DNA of 64,000 bases. Origin: Longimicrobiales bacterium. Its GTDB lineage: Bacteria; Gemmatimonadota; Gemmatimonadetes; Longimicrobiales; Gaopeijiaceae. Location of the stretch: assembly GCA_041690395.1 (NCBI GenBank), contig JAWLHJ010000005.1, positions 448,001-512,000 on the forward strand, in the 5' to 3' direction. Made by a program: the position numbers and the translations under genes. Shown here one piece after another: positions 9,803-50,112 of the stretch. How positions within the stretch are numbered: position 1 is the first letter of the stretch; every line of letters begins with the position of its first letter. Below the pieces are notes generated by a model, which had not been told where the DNA came from, did no database searches, and was given only the letters and a program-made list of their open reading frames with translations.

Positions 9803-12460
9803 TCAGCGTCCGGTGAGCGCCTCCACCGGGTCGACCCGCGCGGCCCGGCGCGCGGGCACGTACGACGCTATCGCCACCACGACGCCGAGTACAGCCGTGG
9901 CGATCAGGAGCGCGGCGGCATCGAGCGGTTCCACACCCATCGTGAAGGCTCCGGCGTTCGGTGCCACGACCGCGACGGCCAGGGCGCCCAGCGCGAATCC
10001 GACCGCCACCGTCGCGAGAACACGGCCGGTGACGAGCCGGATGACGCGCCCCGGCTCGGCGCCCAGCGCGATGCGGAGCCCGATCTCGGAGCGGCGCCCC
10101 GCCACCGTCAGCGAGACGATCGTGTAGATGCCGATGCTGGCCAGAATCAGGGCGAGCAGCGAGAAGAGGCCGAGCACCCCGGTCGCCAGCCGCGGCCCCG
10201 CGAGCGCCGCTGTCAGGTGGCCCCGCATGGTGTCGAGACGGTCCACGGGCAGCCGGGGGTTCAGCTCGCGAAGCGTCGAGCGCATGACGGGCAGGAGCGA
10301 GGCGGGATCCACGTCAGCGCTCACCACGAAGGTGGGCGCATCGACGGCGGACTCGGGCATGGCATAGTAGAGCATGGGAAGGTCGGGACCGCCCAGGTCG
10401 CCCACCGTGACGTCGGAGACGACGCCCACGACCTGGACCCATGCGTCGGGCGCTCCCTGCGGCCGGACGCGCCCCCCGATCGCCGCGTCGGGGTCGCCCC
10501 AGAAGCGGCGGGCGGCCGTCTCGTTCACGATGACCGACTGGCGCGGGCCGATGCGGTCGTTGGGTCCGTAGCCTCGTCCGGTGACGACCGACATGCCGAC
10601 GGTCTCGAAGTAGCCGGGACTGACGTACGCGAACGGGAGCTCTACGGACCCGGTGCCCACCTGCGGGTCGTACCCTTCCACGACCGTCGTCGTGCTGCCG
10701 CCCCCCGACACCGGGATCCGCGTGGTGAGCGCCACGGACGACACGCCCGGGATCGCCTCGAGCCGCTCGATCAGGGTGGCGGCCGTGGCCTGGCGGCTCT
10801 CTGGCTCGATTCCGGCCTGCGAGAACGTGGTCCTCAGCAGGGCGAGGCGGTCGACCTCCACTCCCGTGTCGATCTGTTGATAGCGGGCCAGCCCGCTCAC
10901 CATGAGGCTCGCCCCCACGACCAGCACTACGGACGCCGCGACCTGGACAGCCACCATGCCGTCGCGGAAGAGGAACGCGCGTCGGTTGCCAGAGACGGCG
11001 GTCTCGTCCCGGAGCGCCCCGGCCACGTCCGTACGTAGCGACTGCAGCGCCGGCGCCCATCCGAAAAACACGCCGGTACCGACCATGAGTGCGACAGCGA
11101 ACAGCCCGACCTGCGGGTCGAGGCTCACGTCGAGGGCGCCGCCTCCGGCCGGGCTCGGGATGGTGCGCATGACGGAGATCAGCCACCCGGCGAGCACCAA
11201 CCCGACCCCGCCCCCGAGCAGGGAGAGGAGCAGCCCTTCGGACACGAACAGGCCGGCGACCCGCCCCTGGCCCGCGCCGAGCGCGCGCCGCACCGCGATC
11301 TCCGGCCCGCGCGCCATCCCGCGGACGAGGAGGAGGCTGCCCAGGTTCGTGGCCGCCAGCACCAGCACCAACCCGACGATGCCCATGATCGCCGCGGCGA
11401 CGGCCCGGATGTTGGCGTCCTCCGAGGGATGGACCCGCACGTCGGTGGCCGGGAAGACCGTGATGCCGCGCCCCTCGTTGAGCTCCGGGAACCCTTCGGC
11501 CAGCCGCAGGGCGAGCGCGTCCATGGCCTCCCGGGCCCGCGTGAGGGTGACCCCGTCGGCGAGGCGGGCCCGGACGTCGTACCAGTGGTCCTGCCTTCGC
11601 TCGAGATTCGTGACGCGGTAGCTGCCGCCGACGGGCGTGCTCGAGATCGAGAGCCAGAAGTCCGTGACCGCGAAGCCGAAAACGCCGTTGAAGTCCCGCG
11701 GCCCGACCCCGATCACCTCGACCGGCTGCCCGTTGAGCTCGATTGTCCGCCCGATCAAGCCGGCGTCCGAGCCGAACCGGCGTTCCCAAGCGGCGTGGCT
11801 CACCACCGCGAAGTGACCGGCGCCGACCTCGTCCATTCCCGTGTCGAACCAGCGACCCCGGTGGGGCGTGAGTCCGAGCGTGGGCAGCAGCGTCGACGTC
11901 GTGTACTCGATGGCTACGGACTGCGTGCCCTCTCCGACCGTGAGGTTGGCGGATTCGGGGGACGTGGCTCCGACCGCCGCGAAGACGTCCGTCGTGGCCA
12001 GCATGTCGAGGTACGCCGGGTACGAGGTCGATGCCGGCTCGCCGTCGTCGGAGTCCTGGTAGACGTGGACTACCCGCTCGACGTCGGCGTAGGGCGGCCG
12101 CTCGAAGAGCGCAGCGTGGACCAGCGCGAACATCGCCGTGTTGGCGCCGATGGCGACCGCGACGATCGCCACGGCGCCCAGCGTGAAGAGCGGCGTCGCG
12201 CGTAGTCTCCGCAGCGCGTATCCCATGTCCTGAACCCATCCACGCATGCCACCCCTCCCGCTCCGGTTCTCGATCAGCCCACTCGTGGTCCAGGTCCGGG
12301 CCACGTCCCACAGCGTCGCGGCCACCACGACGGCAAGACTCATCGCGCTCCCGGACCGTGCTCGTTCCAACCGCGCCGCGACGAGCGCCTCCATCTCGGC
12401 GCCGTGCTCGTGACGGAGCCCTGCCGGGTACAGCGAGCAGAGGACCCGCGCGAGCCTCAT
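9803..12460 (-). CDS. ADOP-type duplicated FtsX/MacB ABC permease (cassette A)
   Basis: AIGANTAMF, EIAVRRALGA, EIGLRIALGA, PARRAARVDPVEAL; start MRLARVLCSLYP overlaps the padR stop (ATGA). Confidence 0.92.
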   Translation of the reverse strand: MRLARVLCSLYPAGLRHEHGAEMEALVAARLERARSGSAMSLAVVVAATLWDVARTWTTSGLIENRSGRGGMRGWVQDMGYALRRLRATPLFTLGAVAIVAVAIGANTAMFALVHAALFERPPYADVERVVHVYQDSDDGEPASTSYPAYLDMLATTDVFAAVGATSPESANLTVGEGTQSVAIEYTTSTLLPTLGLTPHRGRWFDTGMDEVGAGHFAVVSHAAWERRFGSDAGLIGRTIELNGQPVEVIGVGPRDFNGVFGFAVTDFWLSISSTPVGGSYRVTNLERRQDHWYDVRARLADGVTLTRAREAMDALALRLAEGFPELNEGRGITVFPATDVRVHPSEDANIRAVAAAIMGIVGLVLVLAATNLGSLLLVRGMARGPEIAVRRALGAGQGRVAGLFVSEGLLLSLLGGGVGLVLAGWLISVMRTIPSPAGGGALDVSLDPQVGLFAVALMVGTGVFFGWAPALQSLRTDVAGALRDETAVSGNRRAFLFRDGMVAVQVAASVVLVVGASLMVSGLARYQQIDTGVEVDRLALLRTTFSQAGIEPESRQATAATLIERLEAIPGVSSVALTTRIPVSGGGSTTTVVEGYDPQVGTGSVELPFAYVSPGYFETVGMSVVTGRGYGPNDRIGPRQSVIVNETAARRFWGDPDAAIGGRVRPQGAPDAWVQVVGVVSDVTVGDLGGPDLPMLYYAMPESAVDAPTFVVSADVDPASLLPVMRSTLRELNPRLPVDRLDTMRGHLTAALAGPRLATGVLGLFSLLALILASIGIYTIVSLTVAGRRSEIGLRIALGAEPGRVIRLVTGRVLATVAVGFALGALAVAVVAPNAGAFTMGVEPLDAAALLIATAVLGVVVAIASYVPARRAARVDPVEALTGR

Positions 12461-12795
12461 GCGCGCTCCCCGGCCACCCTCACCTTGGCCAGGTCCACCA
12501 GCCGCCCCAGCCGCGCCACCTCCGCTTCGAGCAGCGCGCGCCCCGACTCCGTGAGCCGGTAGTACTTGCGCCTGGGGTCCGCGTCCTCGTCCGGTGGTGA
12601 CGCGGGCGCCACCAGTCCGCCGTCCCGCATCTCGTCGAGCGAGCGGTACAGCGTGCCCGGGCCGAGCGTGACCGCACCCTCGGAGGCGGCCTCGACCTCG
12701 TCGGCGATGCCGAGCCCGTGCCGCGCCGCCGTCGAGAGCGCGAGTAGGATGTGGAAGACCGGGGGACGCAGGGGCAGATCCATCGTGTCGGGCAT
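12457..12795 (-). CDS. PadR family transcriptional regulator (cassette A)
   Basis: FHILLAL, GPGTLYRSL, RRKYYRLTESGR winged-helix motifs; GGAG SD. Confidence 0.92.
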   Translation of the reverse strand: MPDTMDLPLRPPVFHILLALSTAARHGLGIADEVEAASEGAVTLGPGTLYRSLDEMRDGGLVAPASPPDEDADPRRKYYRLTESGRALLEAEVARLGRLVDLAKVRVAGERA

Positions 12796-12812
12796 CGAGG
12801 CTCCGTGTTGAA

Positions 12813-12853
12813 GTATCCGCAACAGATATATCTACAGCGGATACATATGTCAA
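12813..12853 (-). promoter_or_regulatory. Palindromic operator overlapping the padR-A promoter
   Basis: gtatccgc-aac-agatatatct-aca-gcggatac (12813-12844) inverted repeat; TTGACA on the minus strand at 12848-12853. Confidence 0.7.
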
Positions 12854-12953
12854 ACGAGGCGTCTGGCCCTGGAGCGTCACGCGAGACGTTGCCCGGCGCC
12901 CCGACCGTGGCCCATGATGCGGTACCGTGCCCGCAGCCATCAGAGGAGTCGTC

Positions 12954-14168: not shown

Positions 14169-14221
14169 GGCGCCACGCGGCCGGCCCGGAGCCGAGGTCG
14201 GCTGCCGGCCCGCGTGCCAGA

Positions 14222-15199: not shown

Positions 15200-15420
15200 G
15201 CGGCCCTCCTCGAATGCGGTACATCGAGACTAACGGAGGACACGATTGCCGGGTGTCGGGAATCCTCCTCCGCCTGGTGTAGTGGCTTTCCTGCCGGGCA
15301 CGATGGGCATGCACCTTGCAGCTTCCTGGTGACGCAAGCGTCGAAGCCGGCGCGCGGGCCACACCCCGCTCCGGCACCCCCCTCGTCGCAACTTCTTATC
15401 CAATGCGAGTGAGGTGAGAC

Positions 15421-15858: not shown

Positions 15859-15886
15859 CGGGGGCCAGCCGACCGGGGGCGAATCG

Positions 15887-16213: not shown

Positions 16214-16231
16214 TATGTAGAAAACGGCATT
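16214..16231 (+). promoter_or_regulatory. Putative PadR operator of cassette B (ATGT-N8-GCAT)
   Basis: tatgtagaaaacggcatt; 15/18 identical to the motif upstream of padR-G. Confidence 0.65.
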
Positions 16232-16300
16232 CATAGGTCGGGGAGTCGTGGTCGGCGCATGTGCACCGGTCCCCCCCTGGCCGCCTGGTCCGGGGATGGG

Positions 16301-16624
16301 ATGGGGGATCCGAGGATGACGCAGGTGACCGCGCTGGTGCTGCGCGCCGTCGCCGCGGGACACGCGTTCGGCTTCGACGTGATGGAGCGGTGCGGGCTTC
16401 CCAGCGGTACCGTGTACCCTGCGCTTCGACGCCTCGAGCGGGCCGGCTGGCTCGCCGCGGCTTGGGAGGATGCCGACACCGCGCACGCCGAGGGACGCCC
16501 GAGACGGAGGACCTACGCGCTCACCGAGCGCGGCCGCCGGGGCATGCCCGAGGCGGAGGCCAAGATCGCCGAGGTGGAGCGGGTGCTCCGCGACGCACCG
16601 GGGCCGGACGCGCGGGAGGCCTGA
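16301..16624 (+). CDS. PadR family transcriptional regulator (cassette B)
   Basis: FGFDVME..GLPSGTVYPALRRLE, RPRRRTYALTERGR; start 16301 or 16316. Confidence 0.92.
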   Translation: MGDPRMTQVTALVLRAVAAGHAFGFDVMERCGLPSGTVYPALRRLERAGWLAAAWEDADTAHAEGRPRRRTYALTERGRRGMPEAEAKIAEVERVLRDAPGPDAREA

Positions 16625-16627: not shown

Positions 16628-19243
16628 GTGAGAAGGCTCTGGCTCCTGTCCGTCTGCCTGCTCGTCCCCCGGGACGAGCGCGTGGAGTGGGTGGAGGAGT
16701 GGGAAGGGGAGCTCGCCGCCTCCGGGTGGCGTTGGGTCGACGCGTTCGGGGCCCTCCCGGACGCCTGGCACTTGAGACGGGATGGGTGGACGATGGGACG
16801 CATGACGCAGGACGTGAGGCACGCGATCAAGGGACTCTGGCGGAAGCCCTTCTTCACCGCGCTCGCGGGGCTGACGCTCGCGATCGGCATCGGCGCGAAC
16901 ACCGCTATCTACAGCGTGGTCGACAGCGTGCTGCTCGACCCTCTGCCGTATCCGGAGAGCGACCGGCTCTACACGGTGAACCACACGGCCCCGGGTCTCG
17001 GCGTGCCGATCCTCCCCTACTCCGAGGGGATGTACCTGATGTACGCCGACGCCCTGGCCAGCCTGGACGGCCTCGCCGTCTTCCAGATGGACAACGTGAA
17101 CCTCGTGTTGGGGTCCGAGCCCGAGCGACTGTCTTCGGCCCGGGTCACGCAGCGCTTCTTCGACGTGCTCGGGGTACCTCCCACGCTCGGACGCACCTTC
17201 GTGGCGGGCGAGGACCGGGAGGGCGCGGAGCCGCTCGCGGTGCTCGGCTACGGTCTCTGGCGGCAGACGTTCGGCGGTGACCCTTCGGTGGTCGGCCGGA
17301 CGGTCGAGATGGACGGCGTCATGAGGCGGGTGATCGGCGTCATGCCCGAAGGCTTCCAGTTTCCCCAGGACGCCGAGATGTGGACGCAGCTCGAGGTCGA
17401 TCCGGCGGACGCCGACCAGGGGTCGTTCAGCTACATGGGGATAGGGCGGCTGACCGCGGGGGCCACGCCCGAGGCGCTCAACCAGGAGATGGACCAGCTC
17501 CTCCTCCGGTTCGCGGACGTGAACGGCGACGACCTGCCGCGCACGGTCCTGGAGCAGGGACAGATCCGCGGCGACGCCAAGCCCCTGAAGGAGATGTACG
17601 TCGAGGACATCCGGCAGGCGCTGTGGGTCGTGCTCGGAACGGTGGGCTTCGTGCTCCTGATCGCCTGCGCCAACGTCGCCAACCTCTTCCTCGTGCGCGC
17701 GGAGGCGAGGCAGCGGGAGCAGGCGGTACGGACCGCCATGGGCGCGACCCGCGGCGACATGATCCGGCACTATCTCACCGAGAGCGTGACGCTGGGTCTC
17801 GGTGCCGGCGTCATCGGCCTCGGGCTCGCCAGCCTCGGCGTGCGGGGCCTGTTGGCGATGGCTCCGGTGGCGCTCCCCCGGGCGGCCGAAGTCGGGATCG
17901 ACGGGAGTGTGCTCGCGTACACGGCGGTGATCTCCATCCTCTCCGGCCTGCTTTTCGGGCTCTTCCCGGTGTTCGGATACGCCAACCGTGACCTGTCGGG
18001 GGCCTTGAAGGAGGGCGGGCGGTCGTCGACCACCGGCAGGGGGCGGAGCCGGGTCCAGAGTGGGCTCGTCGTCGCCCAGGTCGCGCTGGCGCTCATGCTG
18101 CTGGTCGGCTCGGGGCTGATGGCCCGCAGCTTCGCGGCGATCCGCTCGGTCGATCCGGGCTTCGAGGAGGAGGGCAGACTGACGTTCCGGATCTCGCTTC
18201 CCTCCGCCGAGTACCCGGAGGTCGAGGACGCAAGCGCGTTCTACCGAGCGTTCCGGGATCGTCTCGAGGCCGAGCCGGGCGTGACCCGGGCGGCGCTCGC
18301 GTCGTCCATGCCGCTCACGGGATCGCGGGCCCAGAGCTCGTTCCGACCCGACGACCAGCCCCTCCCCGAGGGAGAGCTCGGTCCGCTCGTGAACCTGCAC
18401 TGGGCCGGGCCTGGATACTTCGAGGCCATGGGGATCGAGATCGTGGAGGGCCGTGGGCTCGGGGAGGACGACGCGGCCGGCGGACTCCGGTCCGTCGTGG
18501 TGAGTGAGCGGATGGCCCGCCAGCTCTGGCCCGGCGAGGGGTCCGTGCTCGGACGTCGTATCGTGGGCATGGGCGACACCGACGAGAGCTGGGAGATCGT
18601 CGGCGTGGTGCGGGACGTGCACTTCGAGAGCCTGTCCGAGGAGCCCGGGCTGATGGCGTATTTCCCACTGGTGTCGGGGGACTCGGACGCCGCGTTCGCC
18701 CAACGGGCCCTCTCCGTGGTGGTGCATGGAAGGGGGGACCCGCTCGCGCTCGTCGACGGCGCGCGGCAGGCGCTCCGCGAGGTGGACGGACGGCTGCCGA
18801 TGGTCGATCCCCGACCGCTGGCCCGGGTCGTGAGTGAGGCGAGCGCCGCGACGTCGTTCACCGTCGTGCTCCTCGGCATCGCGGCGAGCATCGCGCTCCT
18901 GCTCGGGGCGGTCGGGATCTACGGCGTCATCTCGTACGTGGTGGGGCGGCGCACCCAGGAGATCGGCGTGCGGATGGCCCTCGGCGCACCGGCGGGGCTC
19001 GTGCTGCGGAACGTCATCGGGCAGGGGATGGCCCTCGCCGGAACCGGGGTGGTGGTCGGCCTGGTCGGCGCGTGGGGCGCGAGCCGGGTGCTCGCGTCGC
19101 TCCTGTACGGGGTGAGCGCGACGGATCCCACGACCTATGCGGTCACCGCGGGCGCGCTGGCGTTCGTGGCGCTGGTGGCGTCGTGGCTCCCGGCCCGCCG
19201 GGCAGCCGGACTCGACCCGGTGAGGGCGTTGAAGGCGGAGTAG
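16628..19243 (+). CDS. ADOP-type duplicated permease (cassette B)
   Basis: LAIGIGANTAIYSVV, LLIACANVANL, RRTQEIGVRMALGA, PARRAAGLDPVRALKAE. Confidence 0.95.
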   Translation: MRRLWLLSVCLLVPRDERVEWVEEWEGELAASGWRWVDAFGALPDAWHLRRDGWTMGRMTQDVRHAIKGLWRKPFFTALAGLTLAIGIGANTAIYSVVDSVLLDPLPYPESDRLYTVNHTAPGLGVPILPYSEGMYLMYADALASLDGLAVFQMDNVNLVLGSEPERLSSARVTQRFFDVLGVPPTLGRTFVAGEDREGAEPLAVLGYGLWRQTFGGDPSVVGRTVEMDGVMRRVIGVMPEGFQFPQDAEMWTQLEVDPADADQGSFSYMGIGRLTAGATPEALNQEMDQLLLRFADVNGDDLPRTVLEQGQIRGDAKPLKEMYVEDIRQALWVVLGTVGFVLLIACANVANLFLVRAEARQREQAVRTAMGATRGDMIRHYLTESVTLGLGAGVIGLGLASLGVRGLLAMAPVALPRAAEVGIDGSVLAYTAVISILSGLLFGLFPVFGYANRDLSGALKEGGRSSTTGRGRSRVQSGLVVAQVALALMLLVGSGLMARSFAAIRSVDPGFEEEGRLTFRISLPSAEYPEVEDASAFYRAFRDRLEAEPGVTRAALASSMPLTGSRAQSSFRPDDQPLPEGELGPLVNLHWAGPGYFEAMGIEIVEGRGLGEDDAAGGLRSVVVSERMARQLWPGEGSVLGRRIVGMGDTDESWEIVGVVRDVHFESLSEEPGLMAYFPLVSGDSDAAFAQRALSVVVHGRGDPLALVDGARQALREVDGRLPMVDPRPLARVVSEASAATSFTVVLLGIAASIALLLGAVGIYGVISYVVGRRTQEIGVRMALGAPAGLVLRNVIGQGMALAGTGVVVGLVGAWGASRVLASLLYGVSATDPTTYAVTAGALAFVALVASWLPARRAAGLDPVRALKAE

Positions 19244-21673: not shown

Positions 21674-21711
21674 ATACAGGCACGCGGATATATATAGCAT
21701 CGTGCATGTAT
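21674..21711 (+). promoter_or_regulatory. Palindromic operator upstream of padR-C
   Basis: atacaggcacg-cggatatatatagcat-cgtgcatgtat (10/11 inverted repeat around an AT-rich core). Confidence 0.65.
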
Positions 21712-21728: not shown

Positions 21729-22082
21729 ATGCCTTCCGACAGCCTGCTCACGCCCCTGGAGTTCCACGTGCTGATCGCCCTCGCCCGGGGCGACGCGTAC
21801 GGCTACGCCCTCATGACCGCGGTCGAGGAGGAGTCGTCCGGGCGGGTCGCGCCGGATGTGGGCAGCCTGTACCGGGTCCTGGCGCGGCTGATGGCGCGCG
21901 GGCTCGTCGAGGAGCGGCCGACGCCGAAGGACGCCGACCAGGACCACCCTGGAAAGGCTCGCCGGTACTACGGCCTCACGGACGAAGGTCGCGCGACCGC
22001 GGCCGATGAGGCCCGCCGGATGGCCGAGCTGGTCGATCTCGCTCAGGCCCGGCGCCTCTTCGCCGCCGGAGACTCGTCGTGA
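21729..22082 (+). CDS. PadR family transcriptional regulator (cassette C)
   Basis: LTPLEFHVLIAL...YGY...GSLYRVL...RRYYGLTDEGR; GGAG SD. Confidence 0.92.
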   Translation: MPSDSLLTPLEFHVLIALARGDAYGYALMTAVEEESSGRVAPDVGSLYRVLARLMARGLVEERPTPKDADQDHPGKARRYYGLTDEGRATAADEARRMAELVDLAQARRLFAAGDSS

Positions 22083-24739: not shown

Positions 24740-24770
24740 GGGGGAGGCAACAGGCGACCTTCGGGGTCAT

Positions 24771-24833
24771 CCCATTGACAGCTTAGGGGTGCTGGTGACA
24801 TCCTCCATGTGCGTCCCCTGGACATCTTAGGGG
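24771..24833 (+). promoter_or_regulatory. padR-D promoter with two 19-bp operator-like repeats
   Basis: cccattgacagcttagggg (24771-24789, containing TTGACA) and cccctggacatcttagggg (24815-24833); possible -10 CATCCT at 24799-24804. Confidence 0.7.
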
Positions 24834-24882: not shown

Positions 24883-25221
24883 ATGGAACTGCTCCAGGGC
24901 ACCCTCGACGTCATGATCCTGAAGGCCCTGGAGTGGGGGCCGCGCCACGGCTATGCCGTGAGCCGGTGGATCAAGAGCACCACCCGGGATGTCCTGACGG
25001 TCGAGGAGGGGGCGCTCTATCCGGCGCTCCACCGCTTGCGGCGCAAGGGGCTGGTCGAGTCGGAGTGGGGCGTATCCGAGAACAACCGGCGGGCGAAGTT
25101 CTACGCGCTCACGCCGAAGGGGCGCCAGGCGTTGGCCGAGGAGGCCGACAGTTGGGACGCCTACGCGAGGGCCGTCGACCGGGTCCTCAAGGCGGAGTCG
25201 CCGGGAGGCGCGAACGGATGA
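24883..25221 (+). CDS. PadR family regulator, acidobacterial (TIGR03433-like) type (cassette D)
   Basis: ELLQGTLDVMILKAL...HGY...VEEGALYPALHRL...WGVSENNRRAKFYALT. Confidence 0.95.
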   Translation: MELLQGTLDVMILKALEWGPRHGYAVSRWIKSTTRDVLTVEEGALYPALHRLRRKGLVESEWGVSENNRRAKFYALTPKGRQALAEEADSWDAYARAVDRVLKAESPGGANG

Positions 25222-28091: not shown

Positions 28092-28151
28092 ACTACGAGT
28101 ATAGTTGACATCGGGCCCACCTCGTCGTATCCTGGCTACTAAGATACTAGT
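28092..28151 (+). promoter_or_regulatory. Sigma70 promoter TTGACA-N17-TATCCT flanked by two ACTA-N6-TAGT operators
   Basis: -35 at 28105-28110, -10 at 28128-28133; actacgagtatagt (28092-28105) and actaagatactagt (28138-28151). Confidence 0.8.
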
Positions 28152-28170
28152 ACATCAGCCAGGAGGCCCG

Positions 28171-28545
28171 ATGGACGTCCGCTTCACCGAGCGAGAGCTC
28201 GACCTGATGAACGTGCTCTGGGACCGGGGCCCGTCGACCGTGACCGAGGTGCGCGAGGCCCTGCAGGACGACCTCGCGTATACCACGGTCCTGACGGTGT
28301 TGCGGGTCCTCGAAGAGAAAGGGCACGTGACCCACGCCACCGAGGGCCGGGCGCATCGGTACCGGGCACTGGTGGACCGCGAGGCCGCGGCCGGGAGCGC
28401 CCTGCGGCGGGTCAAGGAGCATCTGTTCTCGGGCTCCTCGGAGCTGCTCCTGACGCGCCTCGTCGAGGACCATCCGATGTCCGGCGACGAGCTCCGCCGT
28501 CTCAAGGACCTCCTCGATCGCCGGTTGGCGGAGGAGGAGCGATGA
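28171..28545 (+). CDS. BlaI/MecI/CopY family repressor
   Basis: FTERELDLMNVLW..GPSTV..V...LAYTTVLTVL..LEEKG...GRAHRY; AGGAGG SD. Confidence 0.95.
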   Translation: MDVRFTERELDLMNVLWDRGPSTVTEVREALQDDLAYTTVLTVLRVLEEKGHVTHATEGRAHRYRALVDREAAAGSALRRVKEHLFSGSSELLLTRLVEDHPMSGDELRRLKDLLDRRLAEEER

Positions 28546-38187: not shown

Positions 38188-40869
38188 TCACTCGCCCCGA
38201 AGCACTTCCATGGGGTCGAGTGAGGCCGCCCGCCTCGCGGGAAACACGCTGGCCGCCACGGCCACCGCGGGGACCGTGATCAGAACGCCGAGGAAGACCC
38301 AGGGATCGCGGGGGCTGGCCGTGAAGAGCGCGGACGCCAGGAACGGCGCGACCGCGAACGCGACGGCCAACCCGAGCGTGGTGCCGGCGCCCACGATGAC
38401 CAGGCCGTCCCGGACGACCTTCCGAGCCACCTGTCCGCGCCGAGCGCCAATGGCCATCCGAATCCCGATCTCACCGACACGCTGCCGGACCCCGTACGAC
38501 ACAACGCCGTAGAGCCCCGCCACGGCGAGGAGTAGGGCGGCGCCCGCGAAGCCGAGCATGAGCCACATGCTCGCGCGCCGGGCCCAGAGCGCATCGGCCA
38601 TGACCTCTGCCATGGTCGTGACCCGGAACATTGCCACGCCAGGCGCCTGTTCCGTGAGGGCGGCCCGGAGCGACTCCGTGAGGCGGGTCGGCTCGCCGGC
38701 GCTCCGGACGGCGATGTTCATCGCGCTCGGAGGAAGCTGTGGCAAGGGCACCCAGACCCCGGGGCGCATGGGCTCGTCGAGCCCGTAGTGCTTCGTGTCG
38801 GCGGTGACGGCCACGACCGTCCACCAGTCGCGGCCTCCCGTGCGTACCCGCGCGCCCACGGGCTCCTCGAGGTGGCCCAGGAACTCCCGAGCGAAGGTCT
38901 CGTTGACCACGACGACCCCCGCGCCTTCGTCCCTTCCGTCGGATGCCGTGAGGGCCCGACCCTGGACGATCTGCACACCCATCGTCTCCAGATAGCCCGG
39001 ACTGATGGCCCGAACCAGGACGACGGGGTTCGCCTCGCCGTCGGCACGCTCCGGGGCGCCCTCCGCCTGGAAGAAGTATCCACTGTGGCCCCGGAGCGGC
39101 AGGATCGTGGTCGCGCCGGCCGAGACGACGCCCGGGACGGCCTCGACCCGCTCGAGATGTTCGGTCCAGAAGCGGACCCGCTCCGCGGGCGTGGGATAGC
39201 GCTCGGCCGGGAGCTGCACGGTGTAGGCGAGCACACCCTCCGTCCGGAACCCAGGCTCGACATCCTGAAGGGCCTGCGCGTCCCGGAGGGTGACCCCCGT
39301 CACGACCAGTAACATACACGCGAGGGCGATCTGTCCGGCCACCAACATGCCGGTCGCGCGGACCTGCCGTTGTCCGGCCGTGCCGCGGGAGGTGGTCGTG
39401 CTGAACGACCCCGAGGCTTGCGCGCGTGACAGGCGGAGCGCCGGGAACATCCCGAAGAGCACGGCGGTGGCCGCCGTCGCGATCACGGTGAACAGCACCA
39501 GGCGCCCGTCGATGTCGAAGCGGACCCACGGTGGAAACTGGTCCCCGAGGCGGAACACCATGAGGCCCGACAGCCAGACACCCACACCTGCTCCGGCGAC
39601 CCCTCCCGCGAGCGCGAGCACGAGGCTCTCGGTGAAGAGATGACGCACGATGCGACCCCGCCCGGCACCCATTGCCAACCGGATCTCGATCTCCCGCTGT
39701 CGGCCCAGCGCTCGAACCAGCGTGAGTCCCGCGATGTTCGCACACGCCAGGAGAAGGATCACGCCCACCGCGCCGACGAGCACATGGAGGCCGGTGCGTG
39801 CGTCGCCGAGATACCGTTCCCTGAGGGAGCTCACGACCGGGAAGGTCACCTCGTTGACGGACCATCGATCCACGAGGCTTTTGTGCACGCGCGTCAGGTC
39901 CTCCTCCGCTCCGCTCAGGGTCACGCCGGGCAGGAGGCGCCCGACACCCTGATAGGAGAACGCATCGTGCGTGCCGGGGTCCTCCTGCAGGGGGACCCAG
40001 AGATCGGCATCCTCGACGAAGGAGGCCTCCGGCGGGATTACGCCCAGGACCTGGAACACGCGATCGTCCAAGGTCACCGTCCCACCGACGACCGACGGGT
40101 CCCGACCGTAGGCCTGTACCCAAAGCCCATGGCCGAGCAACGCCACGAGCGGACCATCCGGCACGTCCTCGCTCTCGTTGAACAGTCGGCCCTCGACGGG
40201 CTCGATGCCCAGCGTCGTCGCCAGATCGTGGGAGGCCCGTACGAGGCTCACACGGGTTGCGCCGTCCACGCCCTGCAGACTCGCGCCCCCCACGTCGTAG
40301 ACGGCCATGGACTCGAAGGTCCGGTTGCCGTCCCGCCACGCCGCGAAGTCCGCGTACGCCATCCCGGTGAAGTCAAGATTCCACTGGGGCGCCCGCGTAT
40401 CCAGATCGACGAGGCGCCCGGCATCCTCGAAAGGAAGGGATCGGACGAAGAGCCCATCGTAGACGCGAAACACCGCGGTGTTGGCCGCGACCGCCATCAT
40501 CATGATCGCCACCACGGTGATCGCGTACGCCGGCTGCCTGGACAGGGACCGGACCGCGTAACGGATATCGTAGACCAGAGCACGCATCGAAGACTCCCCC
40601 TCGTCGGTTCTCCCCCGCCGGGCACCGGCCCGGACCCCCACCCTCTCCAGCACCGCGTGGCGCGCCGTATCGAACGCCAACGCACCCCAGAACCCGATCC
40701 CCGTCGAGCGCCCCGATCTGCTCCGGTCGGCCAGCATATCGGCCACGAGGCGCTCGGCCGCCCTACCGTGCTCACGCCTCCAGGCGGGCGGCATCAGGAG
40801 CAGAAGCGCCCGATACCAGAGCGGAGCACGCCGATCGCGACTCGGTGGTGGGACGTCGGGATCGGTCAC
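38188..40869 (-). CDS. ADOP-type duplicated permease (cassette E)
   Basis: AANTAVF, LLLACANIAGL, EIEIRLAMGA, EIGIRMAIGA, PARRAASLDPMEVLRGE; GTGA overlap with padR. Confidence 0.93.
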   Translation of the reverse strand: MTDPDVPPPSRDRRAPLWYRALLLLMPPAWRREHGRAAERLVADMLADRSRSGRSTGIGFWGALAFDTARHAVLERVGVRAGARRGRTDEGESSMRALVYDIRYAVRSLSRQPAYAITVVAIMMMAVAANTAVFRVYDGLFVRSLPFEDAGRLVDLDTRAPQWNLDFTGMAYADFAAWRDGNRTFESMAVYDVGGASLQGVDGATRVSLVRASHDLATTLGIEPVEGRLFNESEDVPDGPLVALLGHGLWVQAYGRDPSVVGGTVTLDDRVFQVLGVIPPEASFVEDADLWVPLQEDPGTHDAFSYQGVGRLLPGVTLSGAEEDLTRVHKSLVDRWSVNEVTFPVVSSLRERYLGDARTGLHVLVGAVGVILLLACANIAGLTLVRALGRQREIEIRLAMGAGRGRIVRHLFTESLVLALAGGVAGAGVGVWLSGLMVFRLGDQFPPWVRFDIDGRLVLFTVIATAATAVLFGMFPALRLSRAQASGSFSTTTSRGTAGQRQVRATGMLVAGQIALACMLLVVTGVTLRDAQALQDVEPGFRTEGVLAYTVQLPAERYPTPAERVRFWTEHLERVEAVPGVVSAGATTILPLRGHSGYFFQAEGAPERADGEANPVVLVRAISPGYLETMGVQIVQGRALTASDGRDEGAGVVVVNETFAREFLGHLEEPVGARVRTGGRDWWTVVAVTADTKHYGLDEPMRPGVWVPLPQLPPSAMNIAVRSAGEPTRLTESLRAALTEQAPGVAMFRVTTMAEVMADALWARRASMWLMLGFAGAALLLAVAGLYGVVSYGVRQRVGEIGIRMAIGARRGQVARKVVRDGLVIVGAGTTLGLAVAFAVAPFLASALFTASPRDPWVFLGVLITVPAVAVAASVFPARRAASLDPMEVLRGE

Positions 40870-41171
40870 GTGACCGCGTTCCTCGCCGCACGGACCCATT
40901 CAGCCAGCATGTCGGTCTCTTCCTTGAGGCGAGCCCGCCCCGGACCCGTCAGCGCGTAGTACTGGCGACGCTCGTCCTCCGCCTCGCCCGGCGGCGTCCC
41001 GACCTGCTCGACCATGCCCTCGTCCTCGAGCGTGGCCAACGATCGGTAGAGCATGGCCGGCCACAAGGTCATATGCCCCGCCGTGGCGTCCAGGACCGCG
41101 CGTTGGATGCCGAAGCCGTGCAGCGGCTTGTCCGCCAGTGCGAGGAGGATGTGGTACCACTGGGGCTTCAT
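40866..41171 (-). CDS. PadR family transcriptional regulator (cassette E)
   Basis: WYHILLALAD..LHGFGI...LWPAMLYRSL...RRQYYALTGPGR; start 41171 or 41186. Confidence 0.92.
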   Translation of the reverse strand: MKPQWYHILLALADKPLHGFGIQRAVLDATAGHMTLWPAMLYRSLATLEDEGMVEQVGTPPGEAEDERRQYYALTGPGRARLKEETDMLAEWVRAARNAVT

Positions 41172-41228
41172 TGGACGACCGATCATCGAGACCTCGACGG
41201 AAGGACGCGCCGGCTCGGCGGCAATTGC

Positions 41229-41270
41229 ATCACATAAGACTAGTATTGTGTGATATCAATATGTGCGCAA
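41229..41270 (-). promoter_or_regulatory. AT-rich palindromic operator upstream of padR-E
   Basis: atcacataa-g-actagt-a-ttgtgtgat (41229-41254) followed by atcaatatgtg. Confidence 0.65.
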
Positions 41271-44015: not shown

Positions 44016-44034
44016 GTCGTATACGAAACACGAC
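44016..44034 (+). promoter_or_regulatory. Possible operator upstream of padR-F
   Basis: gtcgt-atacgaaac-acgac, containing the palindrome tcgtatacga. Confidence 0.45.
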
Positions 44035-44052
44035 ACACGAACGGGAGTGGAG

Positions 44053-44373
44053 ATGTCGGTCGGAGAACTGGAGGTGCTGCTGCTACTGGCGGTCCTGCGG
44101 CTCGATGAAGAGGCGTACGGAGTCGCGATTCGCGACGAACTCGATGCGCGCACCGGTCGAAGGCTGACGCGCGGCGCGGTCTACACCGCACTCCGTCGCC
44201 TCGAATCCAAGGGGCTGATCGAAGGCCGTCTCGGGGAGGCCACGCCGGTTCGTGGCGGACGGGCGAAGCGGTACCTGAGCCTCACCCCATCGGGCATTGC
44301 GGCGGTCCGGTCCGCGGCGAACGACCTGGACCGGATGCGTGCCGGCCTCGACCTCTCCACCGAGCCGGGCTGA
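44053..44373 (+). CDS. PadR family transcriptional regulator (cassette F)
   Basis: VGELEVLLLLAV...AYGVAI...GAVYTALRRLE.KG...RGGRAKRY..LT..G. Confidence 0.93.
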   Translation: MSVGELEVLLLLAVLRLDEEAYGVAIRDELDARTGRRLTRGAVYTALRRLESKGLIEGRLGEATPVRGGRAKRYLSLTPSGIAAVRSAANDLDRMRAGLDLSTEPG

Positions 44374-47018
44374 TGCGTCCGTCGATCGCCATGCGCCGGC
44401 TCCTCGACCGCCTGCTCGGTCCTGATGAGCAGCATCATGTCGGTGACCTGGATGAGGAGCTCGCTCGACGCACGGGCGCGCGCACGCCGAACTGGAAGGA
44501 CGAGCTCTGGTACCTCCGAGAGGCCACATCCCTCCTGCTGGCCTACCTGCGCGGCCACCTGTTCCCCCGGCCCACACTGCGCTCCGCCCCAACCCACACC
44601 ACCAGGAGCCCCCGCATGTTCGAAGACCTGTTGCGCGATCTCCGCATGGCGCTGCGCTCCTCGATCCGCACCCCGGGCGTGACGCTGGTAGTCGCCACCA
44701 CTCTGGCGGTGGCAACCGCCGCGACCATCGCGATGTTCGCCGTGGCCGATGCGGCCTTCCTGCGGCCGCTTCCCTGGCCCAATGAGGAGCGGCTCGTGCG
44801 CTTCCATACGGGCTTCGACGGCGGGAGCGGCTCGGTGGACGCGATATCGCCCCTCGACGCCAGAGGGATTGCCTCGGCGACGGGACAGATCGAGGAGGTC
44901 GGGATCTGGACCCTGGGGGAGACCGTGCACCTCACCAGCGTGGTGGAGCCGGTTCGCCTGGAGGCGCCGCGGGCCTCGGTTGGGCTCTTCAGGATCCTGG
45001 GTGCGGAGCCCGTAGCAGGTCGCTTCTTCGTCGCCGACGAGGAGGTCCCCGGCGGGGACCGGGCCGTGGTGCTATCACACCGGCTTTGGACCGATGCATG
45101 GGGTGCGGATCCGGGCGTCGTCGGGACCAGCATCGAGCTCGACGGAGCGGCCTACCAGGTGGTGGGGGTCGCGCCCAAGAACGGGATGCTCCCGGTGGGC
45201 GCGGATCTGTGGCGGGCCCTCGCCCTCGGACCCGAGTGGTACGAGGAGGACCGATGGGGCTGGCAGTTCCTCGCCGCCCTGGGACGGCTGACCCCCGGGA
45301 CGGACGTGGCGACGGCGCAGACCGAGCTGACCCGCCGCTTCGTGGAAGAGACGGCCGGGAGCAGGGAAGGGCAGATGCGCGTCCTCCGACCCCTGAGAGA
45401 GGAACTGGTGGGGAGCGCCCGTGCCGGCATCCTCGTGCTCTCGATCGCGGTGGGTCTGCTTCTGCTCATCGCCTGCCTCAACATCGCTTCGGTCCTCCTG
45501 GCCCGCGCCCAGACGCGGGCTGCGGAGTTCGGGCTGCGGCGGGCGCTCGGCGTGGGGGGGAGTCGGCTGGCCCGTCAGGTGATGCTGGAGACCGGCGTCA
45601 TGGCCACGCTGGGTACCGCGGCCGGCCTCGGGCTCGCCGCCGCAGCGATCCGGTTCCTCTCGCTCTCGCAGCTCGAAGCCCTGTTCGCTCTGGGACCCCT
45701 CTCGATCGACCTCCGGGTCGGGGCCTTCGCCGTAGCGATCGTGCTCATCGCGACGGTCGCCTTCGGAATGGCACCCGTGGCCGCCGCCATCGGCGCCGAC
45801 CCTGCCGGTGCCCTCCAGGGAGGGACGCGGCGAACGGCGGGCGGTCGGAGCGCGACGCGGCTGCGGGCCGGTCTGGTGACGGCACAGATCGCCGTGGCCC
45901 TGGTCCTCCTGGTGGCGGTGAGCGTCTCCACGTCGACCTATCGCGGGATCTCGAGCCGTGATCAGGGCTTCGATCCCGATGGGGTTCTGGCGACATCCGT
46001 CGAGCTGCCTGCCGGAACGGAGGCGGATGAGGCGTTCGCGCTCTATCGAGCGACCCTCGAACGGATGGCTGCGCTCCCGGGGGTGGAGTGGGCGGGGGGC
46101 GGCAGCTACCTCCCGCTCGAAGGTACCGGATGGTCGGCCTCTTTCGCCATCGCCGAACCGGACGACCCGCTGGTCGATCCGGGCGCGAACATGCGCCCGG
46201 TTACGCCGGGATACTTCGAGGCGATGGGAATCCGTGTCCTGGAGGGCAGGGGCCTGACGGAATCCGACGTAGCCGGTGGCGTGCCCGTAGTCGTCATCGA
46301 CCGGACCGTGGCGGAGCGCTTCTGGCCGGAGAGCAGTCCCATCGGGAGCCAGGTCTCGGTGGGAGGCTTGTCGCGGGACCTGGCGACCGTGGTCGGCATC
46401 GTCACGGACGTTCCACATGAGCGGCCGGACCAGACGGACGGAGGGCACGTGTACTTCTCGCTCCTTCAACGGGCACAGCGATCGGTCACCTTCGTAGCGC
46501 GCACGGACGGCGACCCCCTGACCCTCGCCGAGCCCGTGCGGAGCATCCTACGGGAGGTTGCACCACGGGCCGCCGTGACCGACGTGTCCCTGATGGCCAC
46601 CCGCGTGCGCGCGTCGATGGCCGGTCCCCGGCTGAGCCTGACCCTCCTGGCGATCTTCGGGGGCGTAGCCCTCTTCCTGGCTGCCGTCGGAGTGTACGGG
46701 ATCCTGGCCTTCACCGTCGCACGCCGTACCCGCGAGATCGGCACCCGGTTGGCGCTGGGAGCCACGCCCAGGGCGGTCGTGGGGGCGGTGGTCCGGCAGG
46801 CGATGGGCTACTGCTGCGTCGGGATTCTCGTGGGTGGCATCTCCTCCTACCTGCTGCTCCAGTGGCTGACGCGCCTGGTCGTCGAGCTTCAGGGCGCGGA
46901 TGCCACGGCCTATCTCCTGGCGCCCGCCATCCTGGCGGCTTCCTCCGTGCTGGCCGCCCTTGTACCGGCGGTCAATGCTGCGCGGCTGGATCCGAACCTG
47001 GCGTTGCGGGAGGACTGA
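44373..47018 (+). CDS. ADOP-type duplicated permease with 'permease prefix domain 2'-like N-terminus (cassette F)
   Basis: GDLDEE...WYLRE prefix; LLIACLNIASVLLAR; RRTREIGTRLALGA; TGATG overlap with padR. Confidence 0.93.
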   Translation: MRPSIAMRRLLDRLLGPDEQHHVGDLDEELARRTGARTPNWKDELWYLREATSLLLAYLRGHLFPRPTLRSAPTHTTRSPRMFEDLLRDLRMALRSSIRTPGVTLVVATTLAVATAATIAMFAVADAAFLRPLPWPNEERLVRFHTGFDGGSGSVDAISPLDARGIASATGQIEEVGIWTLGETVHLTSVVEPVRLEAPRASVGLFRILGAEPVAGRFFVADEEVPGGDRAVVLSHRLWTDAWGADPGVVGTSIELDGAAYQVVGVAPKNGMLPVGADLWRALALGPEWYEEDRWGWQFLAALGRLTPGTDVATAQTELTRRFVEETAGSREGQMRVLRPLREELVGSARAGILVLSIAVGLLLLIACLNIASVLLARAQTRAAEFGLRRALGVGGSRLARQVMLETGVMATLGTAAGLGLAAAAIRFLSLSQLEALFALGPLSIDLRVGAFAVAIVLIATVAFGMAPVAAAIGADPAGALQGGTRRTAGGRSATRLRAGLVTAQIAVALVLLVAVSVSTSTYRGISSRDQGFDPDGVLATSVELPAGTEADEAFALYRATLERMAALPGVEWAGGGSYLPLEGTGWSASFAIAEPDDPLVDPGANMRPVTPGYFEAMGIRVLEGRGLTESDVAGGVPVVVIDRTVAERFWPESSPIGSQVSVGGLSRDLATVVGIVTDVPHERPDQTDGGHVYFSLLQRAQRSVTFVARTDGDPLTLAEPVRSILREVAPRAAVTDVSLMATRVRASMAGPRLSLTLLAIFGGVALFLAAVGVYGILAFTVARRTREIGTRLALGATPRAVVGAVVRQAMGYCCVGILVGGISSYLLLQWLTRLVVELQGADATAYLLAPAILAASSVLAALVPAVNAARLDPNLALRED

Positions 47019-47059
47019 TTGCCGCCGGGTCCGTGGGCGGAATCGTGTCGCGCGTCCAC

Positions 47060-49750
47060 TCAGCCCGGCCTCAGCGAAACCATCGGATCGACCTTCGCGG
47101 CGCGGCGCGCAGGCAGCCAGGCGGACACGAGTCCGACGACGGTGAGCAGGACCGGCGTCAGCACGAGCGCGACCGGATCCCACGGTTGCACGTGGAAGAG
47201 CAGGGAGCGCGCCGCGAGTCCCGCCACGAATGCTGCTGCGAGACCGACTGCCACTCCGGCGCCGATCCAGCGGAGGGCTTCACCAAGCGCGTGGCGCGTC
47301 AGCTCCGGACCGCGGGCGCCGAGCGCGAGCCTCACGCCGTACTCGCGCCGTCTGCGACGGACGGAGAACCCGACCGCACCCGCGAGCCCGATCGAGGCCA
47401 GCGCGAGAGCAGCACCGCCGAACAGCTGCATCAGCGCACCGCGTAGGCGGAACCCGGCGACGCGCTCGTCACGGTAGTCGGAGAGGGGTCGGATCGATCG
47501 CACCGGCTCCCGGGGATCGGCCTCTTGCACGGTGGCACGCAGAGCCGCCGCCTCGAGACGCGCGTTCGGGGTTCCCCGAACCACGATGCTCAGGCCGCGA
47601 CCAAGGCCGTTCCACGGTTCCTGGGCGGCCGACAAATAGACGTTGGGGTCGGGCTCCACGGCGGGCCCCCGTGCGTGGACGTCCTCGACGATGCCGACCA
47701 CCGCGAACGTGTCACCGTGCACCAGGGCGCGACGGCCGAGCACGTCCCCTTCCGGCCAGAACAGATCGGCTGCCGAACGGGAGATGACCATCGCTCCGGC
47801 CGCGTCGCGGTTGTCCTCCCAGCCCAGGGTCCTTCCGTGGATGAGGGGGACTCCGAGCGCCTCCAGGAATCCGGGTGTCGCGGACCGGACCTCCGCGCAG
47901 AGGGCTTCACCGGGCCCGCGCGGCGGGCCATCGAGAGGCGTGACCCCGTCGCAGGACCGATTGGTCGTGAGGGGCACGATGTCCGCGGCCCCCGCGGCAC
48001 GCACGCCGTCGAGCGCGGAGAGCCGACTGAACACATCGCGGTATACGGATGCGGCCTCATCGTCCGATCGCGCGAACATGCCGAGGCCATGCATTTCGAG
48101 CACGAGGGCGTCTTCCGTGTCGATCCCGAGATCCACGTCATAGAGTCGGGTCACACTTCGTGCCGTGAGGCCGGCTCCGAAAAGGAGCACCACGGTGGCT
48201 GCGATCTGGCCCACCAGAAGACCGCGTCGGAGGGGCCCGCTCAGGCCGGCGGCACCGGCGCGCAGGTCCGCACGGGCCAGACCATCTTCGGGAGTGATAC
48301 GCCCGAGCGGCAGCAGCCCCAGCACGAGGCTGACCCCCAGCACCACAGTGAGAACGAATGCGAGCACCTGCACGTCCAGCGTCAGGTCCTGGATGCCGGG
48401 TAAGCTGGTTGTGGCGAGCTGCCTGACGGCCTCGATGCCGGCGACCGCCAGCCCGATACCAGCCAGGCCGGCCGCGGCGGCGAGCACTGTTCCTTCCGCG
48501 AGGAGCTCGCCGAAGAGCTGGGCGCGGCTGGCTCCGAGGGCACGCCGAACTCGCCAATCGTTCGCGCGATCCACGGTTCGGTTGACGACCAGGCTCGCCG
48601 CGTTCAGGACGGATATCGCCAGGAGTATTCCAACGGACGCAAGCAGGACAATGAGCCCAGAGCGGACCGGACCGACGACGGGCTCCCGAATCGGGCTGAC
48701 GTGGATCGTCTGATCGCGGCTCTCCTCGGGATAGATCTCGCCCAGCGTGGCCATGACGTCCCGCGCTTCCGCTTCCGCGACGCCGATGCCTACACCTCCT
48801 GCGAGCCGCCCGATGCCCCGCCACGAGCGACCGCCCCTGGGCCAATCGGAGACGTCGATCCCCGACGTGCGCCAGATCTCGGGGATGTCGCCGTCGAATG
48901 TGAGAAGGCGCGGATCCTCATACCGCTCCGGGAGGACACCGACGATCTCGTAGCCGGTGCCGCTCATCTGTACGGTGCGTCCGACCACGTCCGCATCTCC
49001 ACCGAAGACGCGGATCCAGAGGTCGTGCGACAGGATAGCCACCGGGGCGCGTCCGGCACCTTCGTCGGCGGCAGTGAAGAGTCGGCCGAGGGCGGGGTCG
49101 ACTCCCAACAACCGGAAGTAGTTCCACGATACCGTCCCTCCCGGCGCGACCGTCGGTGGCCCGTCGCCGGGTTCGATGGCCGGGAGCCACGCGCGTATGG
49201 CTGCGGTCCCCGCGAAGGAACGCGAACGTTCGGCCAGATCTCTGACCTCGGGATAAGAGACCGTTCCGATCGTGATCGGTTCACCGATCCTGCCGCCCTG
49301 AAGGGCGACGAGCCGGTCCTCGTCCGGAAAACCGAGCGGCTGGAGCAGCACATGGTCCGCTACTGCGAAGAGCACGGTCGTACATGCAATCCCGAGGGCC
49401 AAAGTGCTCGCCCCCGCAACGAAGAAGCCGGGGCTCCGCGTCCATGAACGCACCGCCCGACGCACGGATCCCAAGCGCCAAACCTTCATCATGTCACCCA
49501 TCCTCCTCCCCCACACGGTTGATGCTAGATGGAGCGCATCCAGCGGCGCCCCTCGAACCCGCTCTTCCGCCAATGCCGCGGTCCCCTCATCCCAAATGGA
49601 GGACGGCCCGAAGTGTGCGTCCAACTCGCTTTCCCACTCTCGAAGCCAGCGACTGCGGTGCTGCCGCGGCACCATCCGAGCGCAGCGGCGGAGCCTCCTG
49701 CTGATCCTGGACCGGGCGGTCGCATGTCGACGCTCCGACCGAGGGTTCAT
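47060..49750 (-). CDS. ADOP-type duplicated permease (cassette G)
   Basis: TLALGIA, VRRALGA, REYGVRLALGA, PARRAAKVDPMVSLR; ATGA overlap with padR. Confidence 0.92.
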   Translation of the reverse strand: MNPRSERRHATARSRISRRLRRCARMVPRQHRSRWLREWESELDAHFGPSSIWDEGTAALAEERVRGAPLDALHLASTVWGRRMGDMMKVWRLGSVRRAVRSWTRSPGFFVAGASTLALGIACTTVLFAVADHVLLQPLGFPDEDRLVALQGGRIGEPITIGTVSYPEVRDLAERSRSFAGTAAIRAWLPAIEPGDGPPTVAPGGTVSWNYFRLLGVDPALGRLFTAADEGAGRAPVAILSHDLWIRVFGGDADVVGRTVQMSGTGYEIVGVLPERYEDPRLLTFDGDIPEIWRTSGIDVSDWPRGGRSWRGIGRLAGGVGIGVAEAEARDVMATLGEIYPEESRDQTIHVSPIREPVVGPVRSGLIVLLASVGILLAISVLNAASLVVNRTVDRANDWRVRRALGASRAQLFGELLAEGTVLAAAAGLAGIGLAVAGIEAVRQLATTSLPGIQDLTLDVQVLAFVLTVVLGVSLVLGLLPLGRITPEDGLARADLRAGAAGLSGPLRRGLLVGQIAATVVLLFGAGLTARSVTRLYDVDLGIDTEDALVLEMHGLGMFARSDDEAASVYRDVFSRLSALDGVRAAGAADIVPLTTNRSCDGVTPLDGPPRGPGEALCAEVRSATPGFLEALGVPLIHGRTLGWEDNRDAAGAMVISRSAADLFWPEGDVLGRRALVHGDTFAVVGIVEDVHARGPAVEPDPNVYLSAAQEPWNGLGRGLSIVVRGTPNARLEAAALRATVQEADPREPVRSIRPLSDYRDERVAGFRLRGALMQLFGGAALALASIGLAGAVGFSVRRRRREYGVRLALGARGPELTRHALGEALRWIGAGVAVGLAAAFVAGLAARSLLFHVQPWDPVALVLTPVLLTVVGLVSAWLPARRAAKVDPMVSLRPG

Positions 49751-50061
49751 CCGGTGCCCTCCGGCGAGAGGAGATCGCGAGCCGCGCCTTGGGACTCGGA
49801 CACCTTGGCGTGTGCCTCCGCGACACGCTTCTTCCCCGCTTCCGTCAGGGAATAGACACGGCGAGTAGGGCGTCCCGGTCCACGGGCATCGGAGAGGTCC
49901 TCCTCCCAGTGACTCACCACCGACCCTTGCTCTTCGAGGCGACGGAGCGCCGGGTAGACGCTGCCGCTCGCCAGGCCCGTCGCGTCCATGATGTCGAAGC
50001 CGTATACGTGGCCCTTTCGAAGGGCCAGGAGGATCAGGGCGGTCGCGCGGCGAATGCTCAT
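49747..50061 (-). CDS. PadR family transcriptional regulator (cassette G)
   Basis: YGFDIMDATGLASGSVYPALRRLE...RPTRRVYSLTEAG. Confidence 0.92.
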   Translation of the reverse strand: MSIRRATALILLALRKGHVYGFDIMDATGLASGSVYPALRRLEEQGSVVSHWEEDLSDARGPGRPTRRVYSLTEAGKKRVAEAHAKVSESQGAARDLLSPEGTG

Positions 50062-50094
50062 GGAGGCAGTCGTCTCCAGATGGACGGGCTTGTT

Positions 50095-50112
50095 AGTGTC
50101 GTATTCTACATA
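50095..50112 (-). promoter_or_regulatory. Putative PadR operator of cassette G (ATGT-N8-ACAC)
   Basis: Minus strand tatgtagaatacgacact; 15/18 identical to the cassette B motif. Confidence 0.65.

Follow-up and report, generated by a model that had tools for sequence, protein, structure and literature searches.

Class-matched PadR repressors and permease head domains in seven padR–ADOP cassettes of a Longimicrobiales genome

Contig JAWLHJ010000005.1 of a Longimicrobiales bacterium (Gemmatimonadota, Gaopeijiaceae; GenBank assembly GCA_041690395.1) carries, between positions 448,001 and 512,000, seven two-gene cassettes in which a padR gene directly precedes the gene of a large permease of the ADOP family. 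This whole stretch of 64,000 nucleotides is called the window here, the genome carrying it G000, and the cassettes A to G (Table 1). The seven permeases (871–896 amino acids) are built of MacB_PCD and FtsX domains, with two large periplasmic MacB_PCD domains in bodies that are mutually 30–39% identical, and each has an N-terminal prefix, the head. PadRs A, C, D, E, F and G match PF03551 of Pfam, and PadR B was identified as a PadR by its profile scores. The two genes overlap by 4 nt in A, C, D, E and G and by 1 nt in F, and are separated by a 3-nt gap in B. A first-pass annotation of the window had described seven such pairs, six overlapping and one with a 3-nt gap, and had sorted them into four matched classes by motifs in PadR and prefix; the junction coordinates agree with that description, and every motif quoted was located where it had been placed. 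The same annotation stated that ADOP permeases (TIGR03434) are commonly adjacent to PadRs of TIGR03433. All seven permeases indeed exceed the TIGR03434 cut-off (667–872 bits vs 622.3), whereas PadR D alone passes that of TIGR03433 (138.5 bits vs 101.8), the other six scoring 35–52.

Profiles built solely from other genomes place PadRs A, C and E in class I, B and G in class II, D in class III and F in class IV, and the head class is identical to the PadR class in all seven cassettes with wide margins. In cassette F, for example, class IV leads the next class by 126 vs 43 bits for the PadR and by 37.6 vs 4.2 for the head. Head D is the sole window head that matches a curated model (NF038403, perm_prefix_1; 48.5 bits vs a cut-off of 30).

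Searching G000 with profiles from the seven pairs, at a threshold of at least 250 bits for ADOP bodies, gave 42 PadRs and 50 ADOP bodies. Forty of these bodies are PadR-associated (38 intact with the PadR upstream, one split gene, and one with the PadR directly downstream), and the pairs of the window are 7 of the 40 and form no special cluster. Heads of 57–104 amino acids were found on all 40 PadR-associated ADOPs, and all ten PadR-less ADOPs are headless, the best head score being 1.6 bits. The pairs fall into 11 of class I, 3 of class II, 12 of class III and 14 of class IV, and every one of the 40 is class-concordant with profiles trained outside G000; the commonest junction is again the 4-nt overlap (19/40).

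The match extends to other genomes. The best-scoring ADOP loci of six relatives, at most 30 each, made up 147 loci, in which the upstream DNA sufficed for 129 bodies. With G000-trained profiles, an adjacent PadR was found for 70 bodies, and all 70 were class-matched; one of these loci is G000 itself, so that 69/69 are held out. Fifty bodies had neither PadR nor head, nine had a head but no adjacent PadR, and a PadR never occurred with a headless body. Searches that started from the PadR gave the same picture: phylum-wide, a matching head lay behind 37 of 41 PadRs and a head of another class behind none, and in 80 named loci 75/80 class IV and 3/3 class III PadRs were matched (78/83 overall) without a cross-class pair, three more PadRs lying at locus edges. 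The class IV matches come from Acidobacteriota (41), Gemmatimonadota (22), Bacteroidota (7) and others (5). Over all loci 226 distinct heads were tallied with profiles built from these very loci; 202 stand directly behind a PadR, with matching class in all 202, while 10 come after a class-matched PadR within arrays, 4 come before one and 2 lie at edges. The PadR class is also kept where the head sits on a body other than an ADOP (7 class I and 25 class IV cases), mostly small membrane proteins, some of 160–220 amino acids and a few possibly frameshifted.

PadR, head and body of the 39 intact G000 pairs were also clustered separately. PadR and head gave identical four-way partitions (adjusted Rand index 1.0 at k=4; 0.04, 0.54, 0.90 and 0.82 at k=2, 3, 5 and 6), and at k=4 the index was 0.04 both between PadR and body and between head and body. 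Mantel correlations were 0.77 for PadR and head, 0.09 for PadR and body and 0.15 for head and body, and the first was still 0.77 after body similarity had been removed. The class labels require 20 changes on the body tree (49 rows; the split gene excluded), where the minimum is 4 and the shuffled mean 28.5; they are somewhat clustered, yet starred groups mix classes, such as III, none and I. Approximately unbiased (AU) tests on an 18-row subset rejected monophyly for each of the four classes (p 9e-5, 0.025, 0.005 and 0.004), values that are optimistic because the rows, the window's seven and eleven others, were picked after the tree had been viewed. The separate clustering, the label changes and the AU rejections show that PadR and head stay together while the permease body is exchanged. 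The same unit has also passed to membrane proteins of unrelated type. Two outcomes had been named beforehand as speaking against a PadR–prefix partnership: a prefix class uncorrelated with PadR class in a larger sample, and a prefix that tracks the permease-body phylogeny only. The first is contradicted by G000 and the other genomes, and the second by the clustering, the Mantel correlations, the body tree and the AU tests.

In profile comparison the heads of classes I, II and IV are weakly linked (probabilities 70, 45 and 26; E 4e-5 to 7e-4), and head III stands apart (<1). Class III corresponds to NF038403 and TIGR03433, and the class IV head to NF038404 (perm_prefix_2; 83/93 at E<=0.01). No relevant NCBIfam model matches class I (0/49) or class II (0/13) heads, and in Pfam these two classes have no match beyond single weak rows. 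HAAS (PF22564) matches faintly 3/36 class III heads (best E 0.0014), 1/13 of class II (E 0.0085) and 0/49 of class I; for class IV the Pfam scan covered head F. The GxP kink motif of the third HAAS helix, taken as [FLM]G.P, occurs in 1/49, 0/13, 1/36 and 1/93 heads of classes I to IV, that is, in 3/191, and class III heads keep its Gly. Predicted models show three helices with the same spacing in class IV (residues 3–14, 17–34 and 41–63; predicted local distance difference test score, pLDDT, 84) and class I (2–12, 17–37 and 41–63; pLDDT 78), followed in both by a poorly structured linker (pLDDT 53–74). The second helix contains acidic columns in all four classes and has a conserved acidic patch, and each class has invariant residues of its own. 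Fold searches with heads I and IV returned generic helical bundles only (best matches Z 6.9, root-mean-square deviation 3.5, 79 aligned residues; Z 6.3, 3.8, 67) and no DUF1048 structure, a result from which neither a novel fold nor a distinction from HAAS can be deduced.

The regions upstream of padR contain candidate operators whose form depends on class. A CCT-n9-AGG palindrome occurs in 15/48 class III upstream regions vs 3.5 after shuffling, and CTA-n5-TAG in 20/103 of class IV vs 3.3. A class I palindrome, TAT-n9-ATA (15/54 vs 4.8), was set aside as unconvincing after 832 patterns had been tried in AT-rich promoters. Motifs trained outside G000 assign the correct class to 22/40 G000 promoters (p 3e-4), a test that orthologues may inflate. 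A repeat finder returned inverted repeats upstream of some window padR genes but nothing upstream of padR B, F or G, and a sigma-70 scan of the promoters stayed at chance level.

Table 1. Cassette genes and candidate regulatory elements of the window (positions within the 64,000-nt stretch)
Feature	Position	Strand	Evidence or remark
padR A, class I	12457..12795	-	PF03551; class I 129 vs 56 bits
ADOP permease A	9803..12460	-	TIGR03434 710 bits; class I head 12242-12460
padR B, class II	16316..16624	+	profile scores; alternative start 16301 possible
ADOP permease B	16628..19243	+	TIGR03434 872 bits; class II head 16628-16798
padR C, class I	21729..22082	+	PF03551, class profile
ADOP permease C	22079..24739	+	class I head 22079-22327, three helices predicted
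padR D, class III	24883..25221	+	TIGR03433 138.5 bits, over cut-off
ADOP permease D	25218..27887	+	class III head 25218-25469 = NF038403 perm_prefix_1
padR E, class I	40866..41186	-	PF03551, class profile
ADOP permease E	38188..40869	-	class I head 40582-40869
padR F, class IV	44047..44373	+	PF03551, class profile
ADOP permease F	44373..47018	+	class IV head 44373-44624, three predicted helices; head F itself misses NF038404
padR G, class II	49747..50061	-	PF03551, class profile
ADOP permease G	47060..49750	-	class II head 49481-49750
Inverted repeat just upstream of padR A	12813..12844	.	candidate operator; 16-nt arms, 81% complementary
Inverted repeat upstream of padR C	21674..21711	.	candidate operator; 22-nt arms, 82%
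Inverted repeat upstream of padR E	41229..41254	.	candidate operator; 13-nt arms, 85%
Two 20-nt CCT-n9-AGG copies upstream of padR D	24770..24833	.	candidate operators, the first over a TTGACA hexamer
TATGTAGAA upstream of padR B	16214..16222	+	common to cassette G; putative operator or promoter element
TATGTAGAA upstream of padR G	50104..50112	-	common to cassette B; putatively regulatory

Some family members depart from the common cassette. Two further G000 PadRs, class III-like (C7:46175-48003 and C3:459128-460376), each stand before a non-ADOP membrane protein without a Pfam family whose N-terminus looks like a class III head, by score in one (21 bits) and by eye in the other. The split ADOP belongs to a class IV cassette (G000:C3:456045-458659, L158) and lies in two frames, through a frameshift or an assembly error. 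One PadR-less ADOP (G000:C1:862858-865644; L157:1386-1715), its body sister to a class I cassette on the body tree, carries a different N-terminal domain of 110 amino acids without a Pfam match; by eye we take this domain to resemble a degenerate RelE/ParE-type fold. In L227 and L228, both of Acidobacteriota, a single class IV PadR precedes a row of small membrane genes, three in L227 and five in L228, all of which carry a class IV head; these arrays may let several inputs act on the one repressor or may stem from recent duplication, a possible source of tandem heads. The class I head also occurs on at least two kinds of small proteins with several transmembrane segments and no Pfam family (L169-L195, e.g. 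L170-L173, L184 and L185; P0001, P0020 and P0103), for which a search of the ESM Atlas returned unnamed clusters only (0.91-0.92), Chloroflexota among them. A search for class I head fusions among 8000 candidates of 203-2000 amino acids gave mostly ADOPs; the one apparent fusion of PadR and head (P0037) reads like a frameshifted pair and was not used. Headed genes with no PadR in the examined DNA lie in L017, L023, L105, L109, L118 and L020; five are of class III, and they may answer to a PadR in trans.

Elsewhere in the window, directly after cassette D (28105-29807), a BlaI-type repressor (PF03965) and a BlaR1-type M56 peptidase fused to TonB_C form another membrane-linked repressor pair, behind a TTGACA-17-TATCCT promoter. 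Positions 3-5180 hold a histidine-utilisation-type run (aromatic amino acid lyase, urocanase and amidohydrolase), and positions 59227-61360 a cytochrome c552 gene (NrfA-like) followed by a DsbB-family gene.

Contact between head and PadR was modelled for a single, cognate pair, with two F PadR chains, the F head and 93-row alignments. The predicted complex scored 0.59 vs 0.04 for the best control, which is graded as weak support; runs agreed in at least 95% of contacts, and partner pLDDT was at least 86; in calibration, 18/157 solved complexes fell at or below 0.60, as did both of the 2/215 mismatches that passed, and the F job is unlike the calibration set. The model raises the odds of an F head–F PadR contact a little and leaves specificity unaddressed. 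Any specificity probably lies at the level of the class, and members of one class may cross-talk. The description of the pairs as orthogonal in the first-pass annotation overstates the case, because four classes serve 40 circuits, with 3–14 members per class in one cell, and up to five heads follow one PadR (L228).

On balance we lean towards reading the cassette as a kinase-free circuit from membrane to gene, in which the head, its type always matching the PadR type, binds that PadR. The PadR would repress its own two-gene operon, as the class-shaped palindromes and the Listeria PadR precedents discussed below suggest, its dimer being bound to a palindrome that overlaps the promoter. The permease would be altered by a cue perceived through its two periplasmic MacB_PCD domains, and its head, bearing the acidic patch of helix 2, would then capture the PadR as an anti-repressor, so that repression is lifted and more permease is made. 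Capture on signal seems about twice as likely as release on signal, because PadRs in operons of this kind act as repressors and because derepression in Listeria needs the HAAS-type protein LftS. More tentative, and to be taken as a possibility, is a wider reading, with no fewer than two unrelated lineages of heads (perm_prefix_1, and the related classes I, II and IV), each serving as class-specific anti-repressor for its own PadR type. PadR, head and operator would be a portable output module for any membrane sensor body; one genome would then hold 40 such circuits, and most ADOPs would be receptors rather than transporters.

Several observations count against the circuit reading. In one rival account the class match is due to block inheritance alone, the head serving assembly, localisation or translational coupling without touching the PadR. 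Since padR adjoins head-coding DNA, such inheritance accounts for much of the match: an exchange at the conserved body start would carry both along even if they never bind. Covariation between columns of the two proteins (mutual information with average product correction; 93 and 49 pairs) does not rise above permuted pairings, the top z being 6.1 vs 4.5-5.8 permuted in class IV and 5.2 vs 4.2-7.3 in class I, and the within-class Mantel r of 0.42 and 0.54 is that expected from shared descent; the idea that the prefix binds its PadR has weak support, from the prediction for pair F. Nor is the pairing complete, as 4 of the 41 PadRs found phylum-wide and 5 of the 83 in named loci, among them three of class I and five of class IV, have no head above threshold downstream, and 6/226 heads have no PadR in the examined DNA while two lie near, not directly behind, a PadR of another class (L006 and L250). 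The class of 18/40 promoters was mis-called. Evidence free of adjacency is thin. It consists of one clear reversed event and two at contig ends. In the former (G000 C5:312-315 kb; L156, 312536-315538; syntenic in L218) a headed ADOP is followed by a class IV padR, 2.4 kb from the head, and then by a gene that we take, from motif recall, to be adenylosuccinate synthase-like; the class is kept. The two class I cases, both in G007 (L133 and L143), end at contig ends and are possibly the starts of further cassettes. Even so, block inheritance alone is improbable: headless ADOPs preceded by a PadR number 0/70 and headed PadR-less ADOPs in G000 0/10, the reversed order keeps the class, the heads have class-specific invariant residues, and the F complex adds slight support. 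This strict joint presence and absence, with the conserved head residues, argues for function.

Very slightly less improbable is a head that is bound to its PadR at all times and only registers how many permease copies there are, which would make it a device for titration or feedback that relays no outside signal. Such a device fits every comparative result and the weak F complex; coupled junctions would fix the ratio of the two proteins, and bodies as different as the 160–220-amino-acid proteins carry heads. What speaks for a relayed signal instead is that LftS acts inducer-dependently and that the two large periplasmic domains and the divergence of the bodies suggest many different ligands. 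If the ADOPs were ordinary ABC exporters with a shared ATPase under a small-molecule-sensing PadR, as with LmrR, the head would be at most accessory. The PadRs do resemble LmrR and its relatives, and a Trp in the last PadR helix, presumably equivalent to the drug-pocket residue of LmrR, is found in 40/44 class III and 15/20 class IV PadRs, but it is scarce in class I (3/29) and absent from class II (0/6). Eight MacB/LolD-type ATPases encoded elsewhere in the genome, of which three do not neighbour an FtsX-type gene, might work with the permeases in trans, a point against the circuit reading, although none lies within 21.6 kb of any of the 50 ADOPs; one other ABC protein is encoded 32 bp from one ADOP. 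Because of these ATPases and a C-terminal coupling-type motif kept in 42/50 bodies, transport with a shared ATPase may still occur, and transport and signalling are compatible, as in BceAB. As a full account, however, the exporter leaves the head that follows its PadR onto non-transport bodies unexplained, and we think it less likely again than titration or block inheritance. Least probable by far is a head released or cut from the permease, to act as a soluble anti-repressor or to mark the PadR for proteolysis as in BlaR1–BlaI: the poorly structured linker, a Met kept near the start of most bodies and the stand-alone nature of LftS are in keeping with it, but Pfam domain assignments give the window permeases no protease domain and no conserved cut site was seen in the linkers.

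To our knowledge, few genes are as expanded in Acidobacteriota and Gemmatimonadota as those of the ADOP permeases, for which no function is known. If their heads hold PadRs, abundant and mostly uncultured bacteria run dozens of kinase-free sensing circuits, and the heads and PadRs would possibly be small modular parts for engineered sensors.

The closest known system is the dyad of HAAS and PadR-like winged helix-turn-helix proteins, proposed as kinase-free signalling through contact between head and PadR (Ravi et al., mSystems 2024, PMC11237479) and restated since (PMC12419801). That paper also names fusions of FtsX and MacB_PCD (e.g. ACO32024.1), and the idea in the first-pass annotation of a permease that sequesters or releases its own repressor, HAAS on FtsX/MacB_PCD permeases included, was already in print. 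Both systems have a free-standing PadR next to a membrane protein that starts with a three-helix domain, and a head gene coupled to a stand-alone PadR was found in 40/40 pairs of G000. They differ in that the available text of PMC11237479 treats HAAS as a single superfamily marked by a GxP kink and suggests that the factor is released, whereas here GxP is nearly absent and heads I, II and IV do not align with head III. A large, sortable family with four head/PadR classes and candidate operators would make the dyad idea easy to examine. In Listeria, LftR–LftS and LltR–Lmo0600 likewise encode a PadR repressor with a DUF1048 or DUF1700 partner, with autorepression: loss of LltR or LstR derepresses the own operon about 100-150-fold (PMC6624303), and aurantimycin-induced derepression requires LftS (bioRxiv 10.1101/2023.07.27.550809), a DUF1048 protein (PMC4517056). 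Unlike the heads, LftS is soluble, the controlled transporter is encoded elsewhere, and the systems are single copies rather than a 40-member family; direct sensing by LftR and LftS is described there as unresolved. BceAB–BceRS also has an FtsX-family permease doubling as sensor for its own regulator, but with its own ATPase, a histidine kinase and a response regulator, whereas no ATPase or kinase is linked to the cassettes here. The NCBIfam models TIGR03434, TIGR03433, NF038403 and NF038404 leave class I and II heads uncatalogued, and six of the seven window PadRs fall below TIGR03433. A literature search, made without the supplements of Ravi et al. and most subscription papers, turned up no publication about class-matched heads or about these models. 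Matched head classes, body swapping of the unit and class-shaped operators do not appear in the consulted text of PMC11237479; G000 and its window contribute the held-out four-class matching, two uncatalogued head classes, the swapping of bodies and the candidate operators.

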